A DNA stretch of 64,000 nt, from NCBI GenBank assembly GCA_036339995.1, contig JAYYZW010000049.1:7927-71926 (forward strand), read 5' to 3'. Shown here in pieces: positions 14,458 to 64,000 of the stretch. A program made the position numbers and the translations under genes. Position 1 is the first letter of the stretch. Each line of letters opens with the position of its first letter. The notes below the pieces were generated by a model. That model was not told where the DNA came from. It ran no database searches and was given only the letters and a program-made list of their open reading frames with translations. The DNA comes from Pseudomonadota bacterium (GTDB taxonomy: Bacteria > Pseudomonadota > Gammaproteobacteria > Ga0077536).

Positions 14458-14740
14458 TTAGAATTCATCAAAAAATATTTCGCGTCCGTAATTAATTTCA
14501 AGGTAAGTTCTAGTGTGCTGTCTCGGGCCAGCAAGCGGGCGATTTGAAATCTGTGTCGTAATTCGCAACGGTTAATTACTGGCCGTCCGAAAAAGGTAAC
14601 TTTCGCCAAGGCATGAAGACCAAAATGTCGTACGTGATCGTTATTGAATTCATGCCAAAGCGCTCTCGTGATGGCTTTGCGCTTTAGCGAGGAAATATTG
14701 ATGTTTATGGATGGACACTATTCAGACGAAGACACGCGGC

Positions 14741-16976: not shown

Positions 16977-17009
16977 AATCAAAACTTTGAAACGGGTGAA
17001 AATCGACAC

Positions 17010-17844
17010 GTGATTACCCGATGTCCACAATACCATGCCTGGTTTCGCGTGACCGCCGAACACCTGCGCGAGGCGAACGGATTCGTGACCTGCGGAGAAT
17101 GTGATGCCGTCTTCAATGCGCTGACCACGCTGATCGAAGAAACAGCTTCACCGGACACGCTGCAACACGCGCCGGTGGCGCAAACCGCAGCACCCACCAT
17201 CACTCAAACGCGTCGGCGATCGAAACCGTCGCAGACCCGTCGACGACGGACTCCAAACCAGCGCTGAAAGAAAAACCTGACGCGGCTGGGATCGGCATAT
17301 CCACGGAGGAACCCGCTACAGCCCCAGCCGATGCGCCGGATCCCGAGTTGGATATAGCAAAGTTCGAAGAACTCCTCGCCGCGAATGGCGAGGTGCTTGA
17401 GGAGGTGATCGGAAAACCCAGGCCCGGATCCAGCGACTCGTCCCGAGTATCCGCAAAAGCTCTCGAAGTCGCCCCAGGCGTGGAGCAGGAGACCGATGCG
17501 GACGACGGAAGCGGGAGCTTATTATCACTGGACGATGAAGCCGCAGACGCGCTGCCCGAAGCATCCATGAGCGCCGATGATCATGCCATTACCGCGATGC
17601 ATTACTGGCCAACGCGGCCATGGTCAATGTCGCGCCCAACGCCAAACCGTTTCCCGCTATAGAACTAAGCTTGCACGACGCCGCCGGCAAGATCCTCGGT
17701 GCCCGGCTCTTCCAGCCGAGTGAGCACCTGGACGGGAGCATAGCGATCGCAGAGGGCATGCCGCCAGACAAGCCGGTCTAATCTGTGATGGAGCTCGGTG
17801 GTGATGCGCACGCTGCCGTCAGTTTCGAGTTTAAGTTCCTGTGA
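17010..17844 (+). pseudogene. DUF3426-type zinc-ribbon membrane protein gene, degraded by at least 2 frameshifts and 1 in-frame stop
   Basis: Frame 0 encodes the N-terminal zinc ribbon, MITRCPQYHAWFRVTAEHLREANGFVTCGECDAVF. The acidic linker (…DPELDIAKFEELL…DDEAADALPEA…) continues in frame 2 from about 17205. The DUF3426-like C-terminus (…PAIELSLHDAAGKILGARLFQPSEHLD…AVSFEFKFL) lies in frame 1 from about 17590 and carries a TAA at 17779..17781. Confidence 0.5.
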
Positions 17845-18056
17845 TTGCGAGCGGTTCCTAGGAGGCCTTTCTCGACAAGCCCATTGTGGCTATCATCATT
17901 CCCTCGCGACGGAGGACCCCAGGCGAGCGCGCCTTCGGGAGCTATTTCGAGAATTTGCTGATCTCCCGGCCAGCGGCCTGCATTTCGTCCGCCGTAGCGC
18001 GACCTGCGGCGTAGTGAGCACGCACCGTGACTTATTCAGAGGCTTCTTAAGCGAAT

Positions 18057-19034
18057 ATGGAAATTGGGCCCTACGAATTTGAACACGCCCTCATCCTGGC
18101 GCCCATGGCCGGTATCAGCGATCGTCCGTTCAGATCCTTGTGCCGCAGCTTCGGCGCCGACTATGCGATAACGGAAATGGTCAGCACAAAGCCTCATCTT
18201 TGGAACACGAACAAGACCCGAAAGCGCCTCGATTTGGTCGGTGAGTCTCGACCCAGGGTCGTACAAATCGCCGGCGCCGAAACCGGTGTGATGGCGGCGA
18301 CGGCAAGACGTTGTGAAGCTCTCGGTGCCGACATCATCGACGTTAATATGGGCTGCCCTGCAAAAAAGGTATGCAATAAGTCAGCGGGTTCAGCCTTGAT
18401 GCGCGACGAAGCGCTGGTCAGGCAGATCCTCACCGCCGTGTGCCAGGCCGTCAGTATTCCGGTGAGCTTGAAAATGAGAACGGGCTGGGACACCGAACAC
18501 CGGAATGGTCCGATCATTGCAAAGATCGCCCAAGACTGCGGTGTCAGCGCGATCACCGTGCATGGCCGTACGCGTGCGTGCGCCTTCCGCGGCGCGGCCG
18601 AGTACGACACCATCGCGACGATCAAGGCGCAGCTCGTCATTCCGGTGATTGCCAACGGCGACATCCGGACACCTGAAGATGCGATCGCCGTATTGAAACT
18701 GACCGCTGCTGACGGCCTCATGGTGGGGAGAGCGGCGCAGGGCGATCCGTGGCTGTTCGAACGGATCAAAGCCGCCCTTGCGGGGAAGTCCGTGTCACCA
18801 CCTACAAGGCGCGAACGCCTCGATCTCATGCATGCGCATCTAAACTCGCTGCATGGACATTACGCGAAGATTGCCGGCGTACGCATCGCGCGCAAGCACG
18901 TGGGCTGGTATTTGGACGCTTTCCCTGCGGCGCGTGCACTAAGAGCAGATTTCAATCGAATCGACGACCCGCAGGCACAGCTCGAATATGTCGAATCACT
19001 GAACGAAACGTCGATGTTGGACCGTGCGGCATGA
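18057..19034 (+). CDS. dusB: tRNA-dihydrouridine synthase B
   Basis: 325 aa. The N-terminus MEIGPYEFEHALILAPMAGISDRPFRSLC belongs to a TIM-barrel FMN enzyme. It is followed by fis with an ATGA overlap. Confidence 0.92.
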   Translation: MEIGPYEFEHALILAPMAGISDRPFRSLCRSFGADYAITEMVSTKPHLWNTNKTRKRLDLVGESRPRVVQIAGAETGVMAATARRCEALGADIIDVNMGCPAKKVCNKSAGSALMRDEALVRQILTAVCQAVSIPVSLKMRTGWDTEHRNGPIIAKIAQDCGVSAITVHGRTRACAFRGAAEYDTIATIKAQLVIPVIANGDIRTPEDAIAVLKLTAADGLMVGRAAQGDPWLFERIKAALAGKSVSPPTRRERLDLMHAHLNSLHGHYAKIAGVRIARKHVGWYLDAFPAARALRADFNRIDDPQAQLEYVESLNETSMLDRAA

Positions 19035-19297
19035 GCGCCTCGCGTGCAAGCAATCGAAAAGCCGAACAGCCGCTGACCACGCTGGTCAAGCATTCGCTCG
19101 AACAGTATTTCGACGATCTGAACGGCCAGCCGGCGGCGGAACTCTATGAGCTTGTCGTTCGGCAGGTAGAGCAGCCCCTGGTCGAGATCGTCATGCGCGA
19201 GACGGGTGGAAATGTTTCCAAAGCAGCACGGGTTCTCGGAATAAATCGCGCAACGCTCCGCAAAAAGCTCCATAAGTACGGTTTAAATAACAAGTAG
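19031..19297 (+). CDS. fis: DNA-binding protein Fis
   Basis: 88 aa from the ATG at 19031. The C-terminal HTH is GNVSKAARVLGINRATLRKKLHKYGLN. This is the dusB-fis operon. Confidence 0.92.
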   Translation: MSASRASNRKAEQPLTTLVKHSLEQYFDDLNGQPAAELYELVVRQVEQPLVEIVMRETGGNVSKAARVLGINRATLRKKLHKYGLNNK

Positions 19298-19388
19298 AAC
19301 CACCCTCAGTATTATTCGCGGAGGCGTCGCCAGCAGTTTGCGCAGGGTATCAAGGCGCGAGGTACGTGGTTTAGCGATGCCAAATAAG

Positions 19389-19566
19389 CGACGTGCAATG
19401 CCGAAATGCGGAAAAATGACTGCCGGCCCTTGGGGTTGAAGCCTGAAAGCACGCTTGCTTTATACCAGCGCTTGAACATAGGGCGCCTCCGCGCTACTGA
19501 CTCGGCCTGGCAATCGCTCTTGCAGGGCACGATCTATATGCGAAAAATTTTGCAATAGGTTCTGGT
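19389..19566 (+). repeat. About 175 bp leader repeat (copy B) ending in TTTTGCAATAGGTT 7 nt before the purH ATG
   Basis: It is homologous to 1312..1488 (see that feature). Confidence 0.55.
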
Positions 19567-21141
19567 ATGCCAAATTCGGCAAAGGTCACGCGCGCGCTCA
19601 TCAGCGTATCCGACAAGACGGATCTCGAAGAACTGGGACGCGGTTTGAGCCGGCTCGGTATCCACATCCTGTCGACGGGAGGGTCCGCAAAAGCGCTTCG
19701 CAGCGCGGGCGTCGAAGTGACGGAGGTGTCCGAGCACACGGGCTTTCCCGAGATCATGGATGGCCGGGTCAAGACGCTTCACCCCAAAATACACGGCGGC
19801 ATTCTCGCGCGACGGGATGTCGACGAGGGAGTACTGGACGCGCATGGTATCGAATTGATAGACCTCGTTGTCGTTAATCTTTATCCCTTCGAAAAGACGG
19901 TCACGACGCCGGAATTCACCCACGAGGACGCGATCGAAAATATCGATATTGGAGGCCCGACTCTAATCCGCGCTGCCGCAAAAAATCATGCCTTCGTGAC
20001 CGTCGTATGTGATCCGGGCGACTACGCGCCCGTTTTAGGAGAGATCAACTCGGACGGTGCTGTGTCGGCCGAAACGCGCCAGCGGCTCGCGACCAAGGCA
20101 TTTCGACACACCTCCGATTACGACCATGCGATCAACGACTACCTGTCGTCGCATCGGGCGCCCAGGAAAGGGATGTTTTCCGATCGCTTGAGCGTGCGCT
20201 TCGCAAAAAAGCAGATGCTGAGATACGGCGAGAACCCGCATCAGCAAGCGGCGTTTTACGTCGAAAAAGACGCACCCCCCGGAACGCTTGCCGCAGCCGA
20301 GCAACTTCAGGGTAAAGAACTCTCATACAACAACATCGCCGATACGGACGCCGCGCTCGATTGCGTTCGATCGTTTCACGATGCTGCATGCTGTATCGTC
20401 AAGCACGCCAATCCCTGCGGCGTCGCCGAGGCGGCGGACATCGCCCTCGCCTACGAACAGGCGTACAAAACGGATCCAACGTCCGCTTTTGGTGGAATCA
20501 TTGCGTTCAACCGCCCGCTGAATGTCACCGTTGCGCAAGCGATCCTCGAGCGACAGTTCGTCGAAGTGATCGTAGCGCCAGCGATCGAAGACACGGCGCT
20601 TGCCATACTTGCCGCCAAGGAGAACATTCGGGTGCTGGCGGTCGGCGAATGGCCCAGCGAACTTTTGCAACAACTCGAGTACAAGAGGGTCATGGGCGGC
20701 CTTTTAGTACAGGATCGGGACGTTGCTGCGCAGGCGACGGGCACGGGTTCGCTCAAGCCGGTCACGCGCAGAGCACCGTCGGCGGACGAATTGCGCGACC
20801 TCATCTTCGCCTGGCGCGTGGTCGCTTGTGTGAAATCGAACGCCATCGTTTATGCTCGCGCTCGGGCCACGATAGGGATCGGCGCGGGCCAGATGAGCCG
20901 CGTCTACAGCGCCCGCATCGCCGCGATCAAGGCAGCGGACGAACGACTCGAAGTCGCCGGGGCGGTGATGGCATCCGACGCGTTCTTTCCGTTCAGAGAC
21001 GGCATCGATTCCGCCGCCGAGGCGGGCATCCGCGCCGTCGTGCAACCCGGCGGCTCGATGCGCGACGACGAGGTTATCGCGGCCGCCGACGAGCACGACA
21101 TCGCCATGGTATTCACTGGCGAGCGCCACTTCAGGCATTGA
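19567..21141 (+). CDS. purH: Bifunctional AICAR transformylase / IMP cyclohydrolase
   Basis: 524 aa. It has an MGS-like N-terminal domain ([18 protein letters not shown]…) and an AICARFT C-terminal domain. Confidence 0.95.
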
Positions 21142-41418: not shown

Positions 41419-41470
41419 GAATGACCGGCACACACGCGGATAAGTTTGAGATAGGTTCTAGTCTCCATCC

Positions 41471-51731: not shown

Positions 51732-51956
51732 GCTGCCGGGACCGCCGTCACGGCAAAGCCCTTGTAATTGCCAGTTCAAGCGGCCATATATTAAATGTCC
51801 ATCCATAAACGTCATTATTTATTTCGCAAAGGAGCAACGACACCGAGAAAGCGATCCATATGATTTTAATAACAATCACTTATCGCTTTGCGTCTTGGCG
51901 AAAGTTAATCTGTGCAGTTGGACACTATTTAAAACTTATTTCAAAACAATTCGCGC

Positions 51957-53036: not shown

Positions 53037-53133
53037 GATTCCGCCCCGCCGCGGCCCGACGCTGCAAGTCGCCCTCCGATTTGCGACAATAGTCCCCGGT
53101 TTATTGATCGAACTGGATACCCAAGACCCGTCT

Positions 53134-55064: not shown

Positions 55065-56108
55065 ATGTCCGATCCCGATCGCATCATTACCGCCGAAGCA
55101 ACGAACGAAGACACCGCTGCCGATGATTCCATCCGACCGCGGCTGCTGGCGGATTTCATCGGCCAGCCGGCCGTGCACGAACAGATGGAGATCTTCATCG
55201 GCGCGGCAGTCAAGCGCGGTGAAGCGCTAGACCATGTGTTGATCTTCGGTCCACCCGGCCTCGGCAAGACCACGCTCGCTCACATCGTAGCGAACGAGAT
55301 GAAGGTCAACCTGCGACAGACCTCGGGGCCGGTACTCGAAAAGCCCGGTGATCTCGCGGCCTTGCTCACCAACCTCGAGCCCCGAGACGTCCTGTTCATC
55401 GATGAAATTCACCGGCTGAGCCCGGTGGTCGAGGAAACCCTCTATCCCGCATTGGAGGACTACCAACTGGACATTATGATCGGAGAAGGGCCGGCCGCCC
55501 GTGCGATCAAGCTCGATCTGCCGAAGTTCACGTTGATCGGGGCGACCACGCGCGCCGGCTTATTAACCTCGCCGCTGCGGGACCGTTTCGGCATTGTGCA
55601 GCGCCTGGAGTTTTATTCGGCCACGGAGCTGGCACGCATCGTGCGGCGCGCCGCGGACATTCTCGGCGTTGCCATCGACGACGGCGGAACGGAGACGATC
55701 GCGGAACGCTCGCGCGGAACGCCTCGAATAGCCAACCGCCTGCTCAGGCGGTCCCGAGATTATGCCGAAATCAAGGCCGACGGGGTGTTGAGCGCGAAAG
55801 TGGCAACACGCGCTCTGGACTTGCTGAATGTGGATCAGCACGGCTTCGATGTGATGGATCGCAAACTGTTGCTGGCGATCATGCAGAAATTCGACGGCGG
55901 GCCAGTCGGGATCGACAATCTGGCAGCAGCGCTCGGCGAGGAACGCGGCACGATCGAAGACGTGATCGAACCGTTTTTGATTCAACAAGGGTTCTTGATG
56001 CGCACTCCAAGAGGGCGCACAGCAACTAAAACGGCCTGGCACCATTTCGGGTTGACGATGCCCGAATCGTTGCGCCAGGCGGATGACTTGTTTCCCCGGG
56101 GCGAGTGA
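55065..56108 (+). CDS. ruvB: Holliday junction DNA helicase RuvB
   Basis: The translation starts [40 protein letters not shown]…, with the Walker A motif [11 protein letters not shown]. The start was chosen by homology; the ORF opens at 55017. Confidence 0.9.
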
Positions 56109-56136
56109 AGGCCGACAGCGGCTATTGGATTAAGGA

Positions 56137-56288
56137 CCTCTGAATAAGTCATGGCGCGTCTGAATTGTTCATGCGCAGTGCAGATCAAGGCACGAAGCGC
56201 AGGTAATAGCGGGGACTATTGGCAAGGTTCGTAACGTAAGGCTCCGCGATATCATGGGCAAGGCAGATGTGCCATGACTTATTCAGAG
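56137..56288. mobile_element. MITE-like repeat, copy 1 (152 bp; terminal inverted repeats CCTCTGAATAAGTCATGG / CCATGACTTATTCAGAG), ruvB-ybgC intergenic
   Basis: It has perfect 17-bp terminal inverted repeats. The body is about 90% identical to the reverse complement of 61730..61883. It ends 9 nt before the ybgC ATG. Confidence 0.75.
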
Positions 56289-56297
56289 ATTTCTTAA

Positions 56298-56711
56298 ATG
56301 ATAAGCGAACGCTTCGTGTGGCGGGTACGCGTCTATTACGAGGATACGGATGCAGCGGGAATCGTTTATCACGCGAACTATCTCCGCTTCATGGAGCGCG
56401 CGCGGACCGAGTGGCTGCGAGCGTTGGGATTTGAGCAGGATGCCTTGCTCGGCGATTTCAATATCGTGTTCGTCGTCAATCAAACCGATGTGAAATACGT
56501 TCGGGCGGCGCGGTTTAACGAGGAACTTACGGTCACAACCGGACTCGAACGATTGCGCGGAGCAAGCCTGGAGTTCGTGCAGATCATCGAGAACTGCGGT
56601 CAACGGTGCGTTTGTACGGCCAACAACCGCGTTGCCTGCGTCGATGCAAGCTCCTTCAAACCACGGCGAATTCCGGGGCAGATGTTGAGGGTGTTTCAAA
56701 GTGCAAACTGA
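56298..56711 (+). CDS. ybgC: Tol-Pal-associated acyl-CoA thioesterase YbgC
   Basis: 137 aa with a 4HBT hot-dog fold. The translation reads VRVYYEDTDAAGIVYHANYLRFMERARTEWL. Confidence 0.85.
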   Translation: MISERFVWRVRVYYEDTDAAGIVYHANYLRFMERARTEWLRALGFEQDALLGDFNIVFVVNQTDVKYVRAARFNEELTVTTGLERLRGASLEFVQIIENCGQRCVCTANNRVACVDASSFKPRRIPGQMLRVFQSAN

Positions 56712-60645: not shown

Positions 60646-61725
60646 GTGAACTTGGCAATGCTTGGAATGTTTCGAAGGACTCGATCGCAGACACCTCGCA
60701 ACAAGCTTGCCTCGTTGACGGTGATGCTGGGGCTCTTGGCGTGCCTGCCGGCAACCGTGAACGGTCAGACCGAGGGGGGCCTCGCTGGTCGAATGACGCG
60801 CCTGGAACGTGCGCTCGATAGCAAGGGGCTGGTCGAACTGCTCCAACAGCTCGAATTGTTGCAAGCCGAACTCCGGCAACTACGCGGCGAGATGGAAAAT
60901 CAGGTATTCGCTCTAGAGATGGTGCGGAAGAGCCAGCGCGAGGCGTACGCCGACGTCGACCAGCGGCTGGGGCTGATCGAGAATGGCGGGGTCGCCGCCA
61001 CCGTGGCTGCTGTCCCCGGCGTCGCAACCGATCCACCCCTGCCGACTCTTACAACGCCCGCCGGTGGTGTTGTCGCGGGGACCCCTTCCGCTCAGGCTAT
61101 CGCGGTCGATATTCGACCGCCCGCTGTAGCCGCGCTCGCCGTTGGGGCAGATCTGATCGAAGCGGGTGCAGTTGTGCCGGGCGATACGGATGAACTACCA
61201 CTGGACGGAGCGGCGGCAACAGCCGACGTTCCCAGTGATATTGCATTGATGGATTCGACACAACCGCCGGCGAGTACCACGCCGATTATTGACTGGCCCA
61301 CGCCGTCGATCCTGCCGCCGACACCAACGGTTGATAGCGCGGAGTCCAAAGCAGCGTACAGGGGGGCCTTCACCATGTTGAAAGCGGGCCAGTACGACGA
61401 ATGCATCGCGTCGTTCAACAATTTCCTGCGGCAGTATCCATCCAGCCAGTATGCGGATAACGCTCAGTACTGGCTGGGCGAAGCTTATTACGTCATGGGT
61501 CAGTTCGAACCCGCGATCGATCAATACCAAAAACTGGTCAACGGCTACCCTGATAGCAAGAAGCAATCGCACGCGATGCTCAAGATCGCTTACAGCTATC
61601 ACAAACTCGCACTGGCCGAGCAGGCGGTTGGTGTTCTGACTGAACTGAAAAATCGCTTTCCGGGCTCTGCCGCGGCACGCTTCGCCGACGAGCGTTTGAG
61701 GCGAATACGAGCGGAGTCACCCTAA
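60646..61725 (+). CDS. cpoB: Cell-division coordinator CpoB (YbgF) with extended Pro/Thr/Ala-rich linker
   Basis: 359 aa. It has a signal peptide, an N-terminal coiled coil (LQAELRQLRGEMENQ) and C-terminal TPR repeats (…YWLGEAYY…). This is the last gene of the tol-pal cluster. Confidence 0.8.
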   Translation: MNLAMLGMFRRTRSQTPRNKLASLTVMLGLLACLPATVNGQTEGGLAGRMTRLERALDSKGLVELLQQLELLQAELRQLRGEMENQVFALEMVRKSQREAYADVDQRLGLIENGGVAATVAAVPGVATDPPLPTLTTPAGGVVAGTPSAQAIAVDIRPPAVAALAVGADLIEAGAVVPGDTDELPLDGAAATADVPSDIALMDSTQPPASTTPIIDWPTPSILPPTPTVDSAESKAAYRGAFTMLKAGQYDECIASFNNFLRQYPSSQYADNAQYWLGEAYYVMGQFEPAIDQYQKLVNGYPDSKKQSHAMLKIAYSYHKLALAEQAVGVLTELKNRFPGSAAARFADERLRRIRAESP

Positions 61726-61729
61726 GGAA

Positions 61730-61883
61730 CCTCTGAAAAAGTCATGGCACATCTGCCTTGCCTATGAAATTGCGGAGCCTTACGTTACGAACCTTGCCAA
61801 TAGTCCCCGCTATAGTCTGCGATTCGTGCCTTGATCTGCGCGATTTCATGAACAATTCAGACGCACCATGACTTATTCAGAGG
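61730..61883. mobile_element. MITE-like repeat, copy 2 (154 bp), inverted relative to copy 1, cpoB-queE intergenic
   Basis: It starts 5 nt after the cpoB stop and ends 23 nt before the queE ATG. Its terminal inverted repeats are CCTCTGAAAAAGTCATGG / CCATGACTTATTCAGAGG. The reverse complement aligns with 56137..56288 with about 15 differences. Confidence 0.75.
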
Positions 61884-61906
61884 TTCCCTAAACGCCTTCT
61901 CCTTTC

Positions 61907-62578
61907 ATGGATACCCCGCAGCCGACCGCGTCCAACGCGGGTACCTTGCGAATCACCGAAATATTTCTGTCCATTCAGGGCGAATCCACCCGTGTTGGAC
62001 GCCCGACCGTGTTCGTCCGGACCACCGGATGCCCGCTTCGGTGTGTTTACTGTGACACCGCATACGCGTTTTCAGGCGGCCAATTGATGAGCATCGATGC
62101 GATCATCGAGCGAGTAAGGGAACTTAATGTCCCCCGCGTGACTTTGACGGGCGGTGAGCCTCTTGCGCAGAACGGTGCGTTCGAACTCCTCACGCGCTTG
62201 TGTAATGCGAACTTTGAGGTGTCGCTCGAAACGAGCGGTGCATGCGATGTTGCGTGCGTGGATCATCGAGTCATGAAGGTCCTCGACATCAAGACACCCG
62301 GATCGGGCGAGGTCAAGCGCAACCTGTGGTCGAATCTCGGGCATTTACACAAGCCGGACCAGTTGAAGTTCGTCATTTGCGGACGCGCCGATTACGAATG
62401 GAGCCGTGCGAGAATCTCGGAGTTGCAAATCGACGAAGACGTTGAAATCCTTTTATCACCCAGCTACGGCGCCGTCGAAGCGCGGGAACTGGCCGAGTGG
62501 ATACTGGAAGATTCACTGAACGTGCGGCTGCAGGTACAGCTTCATAAATATCTTTGGGGAGACGTCCCTGGACGCTGA
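61907..62578 (+). CDS. queE: 7-carboxy-7-deazaguanine synthase (radical SAM)
   Basis: 223 aa. The translation …[27 protein letters not shown]… carries the Cx14CxxC cluster motif of QueE. Confidence 0.9.
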
Positions 62579-62594
62579 GCCTTCGGCAGTCATC

Positions 62595-63269
62595 TTGCTT
62601 TCGGGTGGACTCGATTCCGCGACCGTACTTGCGCTGGCGCGCGGGCGAGGCCACGTCTGCTATGCGCTGAGTATCGATTACGGTCAGCGGCACGCGTGCG
62701 AACTCGAGGCGGCGAAACGCATAGCCGCCGATTTGGGGGCCGTCGAACACCGGATCGTCAAAGTCGATTACGGCCAGTTCGGCGGATCCGCACTGACCGA
62801 CGATGCCATCGCGGTTCCCAATGCGCCGATGTCCGGTATCCCGGTGACCTACGTGCCTGCGCGCAATACGGTCATGCTCGCTATTGCACTGGGTTGGAGT
62901 GAAATTCTCAACGCACGCGAAATTCATATCGGCGTCAACGCCATCGATTACTCCGGTTATCCTGATTGCAGGCCAGAATTCATTCAACAATTCCAGCGCC
63001 TGGCCGCATGGGCAACAAAGGCCGGCGTAGAGGGCCGCGGTGTTTCCATCAAAGCCCCTTTGATCGAGATGAGCAAAGCTGAAATCATCAATAAGGGCAC
63101 CGAGCTAGGCGTCGATTACAGCCTCACGGTGAGTTGTTATCAGCCAAATGACATGACCCTTGCCTGTGGAAGTTGCGATGCATGTCGCATCCGACGCGAT
63201 GGTTTCGCGGCCGCAGGCATTGCCGATCCCACTCGCTACGGAGAATCGTCCAGCGCCCCTATTGGATGA
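62595..63269 (+). CDS. queC: 7-cyano-7-deazaguanine synthase
   Basis: …[18 protein letters not shown]… is a PP-loop ATPase. The C-terminal zinc site is [20 protein letters not shown]. The true start is probably a few codons upstream; there is no in-frame ATG, so it may be a CTG or TTG start. Confidence 0.88.
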
Positions 63270-63515
63270 AGGACGGCGGATGCCGGCGGAGGATAGCTGC
63301 GTTTGAACACCGGCCTGGAGCTCGCCTTCGAGCGGTGGCTATGGCGAAGTGAAAGCCAAGTCCAGATGTGCAGGGAGGCCCCGGTGCCGTCGTAAGTCGC
63401 AAGCAGTGGTACCAATTCCAAGTGGCTGGAACGTCGTCGAACCGCCTGATTATTCCTGTTTACTCAACAGCTTCATCTCAACGCCGGGACCGCCTTAGTG
63501 CAATAAACGGGTTGC

Positions 63516-64000
63516 TTAGATTGTCGGAGCGCCCATTACCGAGGCCAGGCCCGCGGTCAATGTCTCGCGCAGGCGATGGTAGGTATTGTAGAGCGAGCGT
63601 ATCGCCCGAACGTAAATGATGGTCTGGCCGCATCGGCACGGCGTGTCGTCGTTCGACATCGTGCGCATCGCCTGCTCGACGTGCCCGAACCAAAGATTCG
63701 GATCCAAGGCTTGTTTTTGAGCGCGATGTCGTGCCAGGTCGATTCGATTAAACCCGATATTGTATGAGGCCAGCGCAAACCACGTGCGCTCACGCGGAGG
63801 AATCTGATCATCGAAACGGTTCCATAAATAACGCAGGTACTTGATGCCCCCTCGAATCCCCGCTTCCGGGTCGAAGGGATCGCTTACGCCCATGTCATGC
63901 GCAGTGCCGGGCAGGAGCTGCATCAGGCCGAGAGCACCGGCCTCTGATTGCGCGCCCGGGTCGAACTGACTCTCCTGGTACATTTGCGCGACGATCAATC
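63516..64000 (-). CDS. Lytic murein transglycosylase (SLT domain; MltF-like), C-terminal part, N-terminus outside window
   Basis: The SLT catalytic region is …SQFDPGAQSEAGALGLMQLLPGTAHDMG… The ORF runs off the 3' edge of the window. Confidence 0.7.
   Translation of the reverse strand, partial: LIVAQMYQESQFDPGAQSEAGALGLMQLLPGTAHDMGVSDPFDPEAGIRGGIKYLRYLWNRFDDQIPPRERTWFALASYNIGFNRIDLARHRAQKQALDPNLWFGHVEQAMRTMSNDDTPCRCGQTIIYVRAIRSLYNTYHRLRETLTAGLASVMGAPTI

Follow-up and report, generated by a model that had tools for sequence, protein, structure and literature searches.

IS5 of Escherichia coli duplicates a 4-bp target with the consensus YTAR, and this duplication is the signature of IS5 (PMC5009759). 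The Correia elements (NEMIS) of Neisseria are high-copy, intergenic, hairpin-forming MITEs of ~100-160 bp, which are often co-transcribed with their neighbours, duplicate TA, lie mostly upstream of genes and carry sigma-70 promoters and an IHF site. They are the precedent for MITE ends that serve as promoters (PMC10969869). ERIC (RU-1) sequences are imperfect palindromes of ~127-168 bp, transcribed and intergenic, which are known as full, internally deleted and partial copies and show no clear YTAR duplication. Finally, the REP and BIME repeats, mobilised by RAYT transposases, are short intergenic palindromes of 20-40 nt without target duplications, and are also found as single units near gene ends.

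The DNA analysed here, which we refer to as the window, is a stretch of 64,000 nucleotides (64 kb) that holds two full copies and one solo end of a MITE. Like IS5, this element duplicates a 4-bp target of YTAR consensus, whereas it is 162 bp long, has no transposase gene and has an interior unrelated to that of IS5. It is a high-copy, intergenic and hairpin-forming MITE, as are the Correia elements, but its terminal repeats are unrelated to theirs, it lacks promoter-like sites and it sits mostly against stop codons. With ERIC it has in common the imperfect palindrome and the occurrence of full, internally deleted and partial copies, although there is no sequence similarity between the two and the present element has clear transposon-type termini. 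REP-like single units near gene ends also have a counterpart here; however, the solo end, which lies before dusB, is not a palindrome and belongs to a 162-bp element that makes a duplication. Membership of the REP/BIME, Correia and ERIC families was rejected on these differences in termini, duplication, promoters and placement. We propose that the motif before dusB is very probably the deletion-truncated right end of the 162-bp IS5-type MITE.

The MITE family, its ends and its target site

A scan for the terminal repeat in species-representative genomes returned at least 79 stretches, 75 of those listed coming from a single MAG, CAXXLL01, of an uncultured gammaproteobacterium. BLAST showed the majority of these matches to be full elements, and the MAG contains at least 83 full copies of the MITE. 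It is a relative of the window organism with a different genome: one of its loci (L078), the sole overlapping locus among the listed CAXXLL01 matches, aligns to window positions 61068-64000 at ~91% identity and carries the orthologue of the second full copy of the window. The 83 copies of the MAG and the two of the window, collected by BLAST and profile search, were combined in an alignment of 85 full copies, which has a mean column identity of 90% and a consensus of 162 bp with the ends GGAACCTCTGAATAAGTCATGG...CCATGACTTATTCAGAGGTTCC. The arms of the terminal inverted repeats are 55 nt long and 78% complementary, and their outer 22 nt are near perfect. The consensus is non-coding, in that a stop codon (TGA, TAA) lies no more than 15 nt from the end in two of the three forward frames.

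The 4-bp flanks are identical in 53 of the 85 copies, whereas shuffled pairings gave 13 on average and 24 at most; in a further 23 copies the flanks differ at one base. The target tetramers are chiefly CTAA, TTAG and TTAA, which account for 38 of the 53 identical pairs, and the site logo reads C-Y-T-A-R. The ends of IS5A, taken from E. coli K-12 (273955-275149), are GGAAGGTGCGAATAAG and GGAAGGTGCGAACAAGTC, the right end reading ...GACTTGTTCGCACCTTCC in place; compared with the MITE end GGAACCTCTGAATAAGTC they are identical at 13-14 of 18 positions and share GGAA..T..GAAYAAGTC with it. Unlike IS5, the MITE was found with no autonomous partner bearing its ends in the ~700 kb of examined DNA, in plasmids or in viral contigs. 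Specifically, tblastn with E. coli InsH detected no IS5-type transposase in the ~700 kb, blastn gave no match of plasmids to the MITE consensus, and the viral contigs contained no exact match to the terminal repeat. The element is thus small and non-coding, has terminal inverted repeats, duplicates its target site and occurs in multiple dispersed copies, while the YTAR 4-bp duplication and the IS5-like ends place it with the IS5 group. Judged on its sequence, it is an undescribed IS5-type MITE family.

The terminal repeat was also seen outside this lineage. In a Pusillimonas MAG (L033, 1333-1371) two such ends meet head to head and form a mini-hairpin of ~40 nt, which terminates in TTAA, and an alphaproteobacterial MAG (L061, 3367-3392) has a lone end of 26 nt. 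These occurrences suggest that a widespread relative in the IS5 group may bear the same ends.

Both full copies in the window were established by direct reading:

56134..56293, minus strand (inverse): full copy 1, 160 bp, in the spacer between ruvB and a ybgC-like thioesterase gene
56130-56133 and 56294-56297: TTAA duplications of copy 1, the right one abutting the ybgC-like ATG at 56298
61726..61887, plus strand: full copy 2, 162 bp, in the spacer between cpoB/ybgF and queE
61722-61725 and 61888-61891: CTAA duplications of copy 2, the left one containing the TAA stop of cpoB/ybgF

The two copies are mutually inverse and 91% identical over 117 nt, and copy 1 begins 25 nt past the ruvB stop. 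Each folds into one long imperfect hairpin, with an MFE of -69.6 kcal/mol (z = -10.0) in one case and -80.5 kcal/mol (z = -7.9) in the other. RNAalifold on the 85 copies retained only 14 pairs with almost no covariation, and this is evidence neither for nor against selection on the hairpin. The sole Rfam match in the window at gathering score is a tRNA, and copy 2 and the dusB leader matched nothing in Rfam at E <= 1.

Truncated derivatives are also part of the family. Internal deletions were found at two loci (L026, L047), one of which (L047) is reduced to 12 nt from the left end and 39 nt from the right, enclosed by CTAA repeats. Half elements occur at two further loci (L011, L021), about 53-54 nt of the element are retained at two (L001, L039), and solos of 26-31 nt consisting of an end only are present at four (L004, L024, L042, L077).

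A second piece of the element body had been reported upstream of yebC in the preliminary description. The 12-mer in question, CAATAGTCCCCG, is indeed present at 53087-53098, and its reverse complement is found at 56210-56221, which corrects the earlier placement at 56200..56211. However, the window outside the element has 3 exact 12-mer matches to either strand of it, against 2.4 expected (analytically, under a first-order Markov model), and at yebC there is no similarity to the element past the 12 bases. The matching stretch belongs to a variable part of the family, which reads CAATAG, CCATAG or CCCTAG. The yebC 12-mer is a chance-level match and not a second element fragment.

The remnant in front of dusB

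Immediately before dusB the window reads ACGCACCGTGACTTATTCAGAGGCTTCTTAAGCGAATATG (18020-18059), the closing ATG of which, at 18057, is the start of the gene. The features of this region are:

17872..17899, plus strand: the sole sigma-70-like site in the dusB upstream region, TCGACA-16-CATCAT (consensus scan and orthologue block)
18020..18046, plus strand: solo remnant, the last 23-27 nt of the MITE right end, ACGCACCGTGACTTATTCAGAGGCTTC (sequence match, profile and orthologue comparison)
18020-18023: ACGC, the presumed deletion junction, ambiguous because it is common to the native leader and the element interior
18047..18050, plus strand: TTAA, the presumed surviving copy of the 4-bp target site (a single TTAA is in the same place in an element-free orthologue, L081)
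18057..19034, plus strand: dusB, tRNA dihydrouridine synthase B (Pfam Dus on the 98% and 90% orthologues)
19031..19297, plus strand: fis, overlapping the end of dusB (HTH_8, Fis family, match of the window ORF)

The 14-mer TGACTTATTCAGAG occurs five times in the window at up to 2 mismatches, compared to 0.19 expected; each full copy contributes two occurrences, one per end, and the solo at dusB is the fifth. In the profile built on the 85 full copies, 18020-18045 corresponds to model positions 136-161 of 162, and the solo is identical to the right end of copy 2 at 22 of 23 positions. Its right boundary coincides with that of the element (...GAGGCTTC), and next comes TTAA, which is among the target tetramers of the family; the dusB start codon lies 10 nt past the end of the remnant. 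The profile match and the exact boundary bear out the earlier suggestion that this motif is a lone terminal piece of the element represented by the two full copies. The TTCTTAA “box” that had been seen next to it is present as a sequence but is not a separate box, as it consists of the last three bases of the element (..TTC) and the target site TTAA.

The history of the site was examined in orthologous dusB leaders, which were obtained through DusB homologues and one metagenome scan. DusB orthologues at 98% and 90% identity have the Pfam Dus domain, with fis next downstream. The identical solo is present in two other assemblies, L080 (98% nucleotide identity) and L086. There is no terminal-repeat match in the dusB leaders of L081 (88-91% nucleotide identity) and L082 (DusB 76%), both of which carry GAYAMGATCRATGACAGCGAYGRAWACSGGC where the window has the remnant, with TTAA next in L081. 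Aligned by eye, with slashes at the block boundaries, the leaders read:

Window: ...GTAGTGAGCACGC / ACCGTGACTTATTCAGAGGCTTC / TTAA / GCGAATATG
L081: ...GTGGTAAGCACGC / GATACGATCAATGACAGCGATGAATACGGC / TTAA / ACAAATATG
L082: ...AAACGCGCACGC / GACAAGATCGATGACAGCGACGGAAACCGGC / TGAC / TGAAAATG

The right-hand junction is thus ...GAGGCTTC / TTAA / GCGAATATG in the window and ...ACGGC / TTAA / ACAAATATG in L081, whose single TTAA lies 6 nt before the dusB ATG, the same distance as in the window. In other words, the solo combines an exact terminus with a target tetramer, and the element-free orthologue keeps one target and the native flank. Since the 30-nt leader block is conserved between L081 and L082, it is ancestral.

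Based on this comparison, we suggest that the lineage leading to the window's species acquired the MITE at the TTAA that lies 6 nt before the dusB ATG. A deletion of ~170 bp would then have joined the native ...GCACGC to the element ...CAGACGC/ACC across a 4-nt ACGC microhomology, so that 30 nt of native leader were lost together with the left TTAA and ~135 nt from the left of the element. A short sequence shared at the junction is typical of microhomology-mediated deletion. Instability of the palindrome, by slippage or hairpin cleavage, is a plausible driver of such a deletion, and the other deletion derivatives in the family support decay of this kind at dusB. No full-length copy was found at the dusB site in the relatives examined, and a metagenome scan for the junction between element end and dusB start gave the same solo only, so that the order of insertion and then deletion is one we infer rather than observe.

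Just upstream of the deletion junction the leader also has a small hairpin, CGCCGTAG-CGCGAC-CTGCGGCG (17990-18012), which L081 keeps as CGCCGTAG-CTCGAA-CTACGGCG.

As a separate observation, the DUF3426/zinc-ribbon gene upstream of dusB (17000-17844) looks broken in the window. About 350 bp of L080 and L081 are missing at about 17587-17590, and at about 17779-17784 the TAT ATC of the orthologues is TAA TCT, a premature stop ~20 codons before 17844. This gene is either a pseudogene in the window or the result of an assembly error.

Gene context and regulatory readings

The preliminary description held that fragments of the family recur at the 5' ends of operons, and suggested that the element end functions as, or was co-opted into, a promoter or leader module, possibly a binding site for a DNA- or RNA-binding factor. 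The context of the family was assessed for 82 copies with two called neighbours, using genes called on the loci, with the elements masked, by an iteratively trained dicodon model; positions of gene starts from this home-made caller are approximate (maybe tens of nt off), and stop codons are exact. The intergenic regions were tandem for 62 copies, divergent for 13 and convergent for 7, and this distribution does not differ from that of element-free intergenic regions (chi-square p = 0.17). In tandem regions the upstream stop was nearer for 51 copies and the downstream start for 11, which runs counter to a recurrence at operon 5' ends. The median distance of copies to the stop was 2.5 nt. On start-facing sides (n = 88) the median was 50 nt, with 8 sides within 10 nt of the start and none within 1 nt.

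On gene-3'-facing sides, 37 of 76 begin within 1 nt of a called gene end. A genuine in-frame stop lies inside the duplication in 30 of the 76 (39%; 22 TAA, 6 TAG and 2 TGA), and at the remaining 7 of the 37 the called ORF reads into the element. As a baseline, 17.8% of YTAR sites in element-free intergenic regions overlap a stop codon, and comparison of 37/76 with this figure gives p = 8e-10, a value that covers the 37 sides before correction to 30. The seven ORFs reading into the terminal repeat (L002 6335, L019 5609, L021 5542, L029 514, L032 7086, L036 4703 and L060 3772) probably encode upstream proteins whose C-terminal residues were exchanged on insertion. Of seven solo or short remnants, 4 face a stop codon and 3 a gene start. 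The MITE family is tied to stop codons and not to gene starts. Because the YTAR target is often a TAA or TAG stop, which the duplication regenerates, insertion there is harmless, and a copy lying against a stop codon in a short spacer is automatically close to the next start. The short intergenic spacers, together with the preference for YTAR targets, therefore account for the proximity of element ends to gene starts in the window.

The idea of an outward promoter or host transcription-factor site in the terminal repeat, as in the Correia elements of Neisseria, does have some basis: some bacterial MITEs carry sigma-70-like promoters (PMC10969869), the terminal repeat holds the half-palindrome TGAnTnAnTCA, and element ends lie just before three genes in the window. 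However, a consensus scan found no sigma-70-like hexamer pair in the solo or in the regions of the two full copies (56000-56400 and 61600-62000), and the family has neither an internal outward sigma-70-type promoter nor a preferential location upstream of genes, its positions being set by stop codons. Its orientation relative to flanking genes (39:23) is not significantly biased (p = 0.056). At the solo, moreover, only 10 nt separate the element end from the dusB ATG, too few to accommodate a -10 box, a transcription start and a leader. A conserved candidate for a native promoter is already present upstream, as the sigma-70-like site at 17872-17899, ~120 nt upstream of the remnant, lies in the block TGGCTATCATC, which is invariant in 5 of 5 orthologues, including one with DusB at 65% identity; we regard it as the candidate promoter of dusB-fis. 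As for a binding factor, the anatomy of the element implies only a transposase that recognises the terminal inverted repeat. An outward promoter or host factor site in the terminal repeat is, in our view, extremely improbable. Downstream of the candidate native promoter the remnant would be expected to form part of the transcript, as the final 27 nt of the dusB-fis 5' UTR, and here an exapted leader module has to be considered, in which the remnant is kept for translation initiation of dusB, and hence of the coupled fis, through a Shine-Dalgarno-like GAGG and A/U-rich flanks. In favour of this role, the remnant stands in place of 30 nt of leader that L081 and L082 have kept in common, three independent assemblies of the species (the window, L080 and L086) carry the remnant without a difference, and in copy 1 the same AGAG motif stands 8 nt before the ybgC-like ATG. 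Nevertheless, 14 nt separate the GAGG from the dusB ATG, where a spacing of 5-10 nt is usual, the three assemblies are 98-100% identical, so that conservation among them is uninformative, and RNA folding of the dusB leader gives no significant structure, whether the remnant is included or left out (z = 0.12 and -0.07). Other solos face stops as often as starts, and the absence of start-facing sides within 1 nt of a start also weighs against this role, which makes an exapted leader distinctly unlikely. Nothing found indicates selection for an effect of the remnant on dusB-fis translation, an effect that is possible as for any sequence in that place, and the remnant is most likely carried along as a tolerated passenger and not kept by selection as a regulatory module.

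It may also be asked whether the 26-31 nt solos are the result of decay at all, or a distinct product, arising by one-ended or abortive transposition or from a different element that shares the terminal repeat. Five of ~11 truncated copies keep a nearly equal length of 26-31 nt, which a preferred breakpoint or a retained transposase-binding end could produce; two loci (L024 and L039) share the variant CCCGCACCATAAC, also seen in some full copies, and every solo ends at a YTAR tetramer. A process of insertion only, however, does not explain the 30 nt of native flank lost at dusB, other truncated lengths (39, 53, 86 and 97 nt) and internal deletions exist, and remnants below ~20 nt are undetectable, so that short remnants pile up at the limit of detection. 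We therefore consider a distinct product very improbable, and retain the deletion-truncated MITE end as the preferred reading. More speculatively, the hairpins of ~160 nt that hug stop codons, following ~40% of upstream neighbours, might act as intercistronic RNA elements in processing, stabilisation or attenuation, with remnants such as that at dusB co-opted as translation-initiation leaders, although we think this unlikely.

Other repeats of the lineage and the meaning of the remnant

Repeats other than the MITE were also noted. A second intergenic repeat, of ~180-260 nt, is found at 1215-1487 and 19300-19566 of the window, the copies being roughly 60-75% identical, with a partial copy at 41432-41462. 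The end of this repeat, ACATGCGGATRATTTTGAGATAGGTTSTNGT, directly precedes the start codons at 1489 and 19567, and the repeat has no Rfam match at gathering score. The ORF starting at 19567 is the counterpart of an AICARFT_IMPCHas (purH-like) gene in L081, and the whole stretch between fis and this purH-like gene, which amounts to 2 nt in a distant orthologue (L083), is taken up by the copy at 19300-19566. A third intergenic repeat, of ~150 nt, occurs at 14572-14717 and, in inverse orientation, at 51796-51932 (79% identical); one copy extends into the beginning of the ORF at 14711, and the other is flanked by two genes on the plus strand. In the related loci, repeats of ~165 nt lie downstream of the purH-like gene in L081 (6021-6185; similar sequences in L043 1919-2082 and L059 6405-6571) and in L083 (5815-5978; similar sequences in L066 4110-4271 and L074 415-575). 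They recur in MAG loci at 85-91% and are unrelated to the terminal repeat of the MITE. The lineage thus seems to carry several MITE-like families.

The present analysis gives the consensus, the boundaries and the target site of an undescribed IS5-type MITE family, present at high copy number in an uncultured lineage of the Gammaproteobacteria, and accounts for a repeated motif that might have been taken for a regulatory box. Its value is mainly for annotation, as the dusB motif would be an ordinary MITE remnant that opens no new mechanism. The family illustrates how an element that targets YTAR can settle harmlessly on stop codons, and the dusB case how insertion of a MITE, followed by a microhomology deletion, may have rewritten 30 nt at the end of a conserved 5' leader while the gene was not destroyed.
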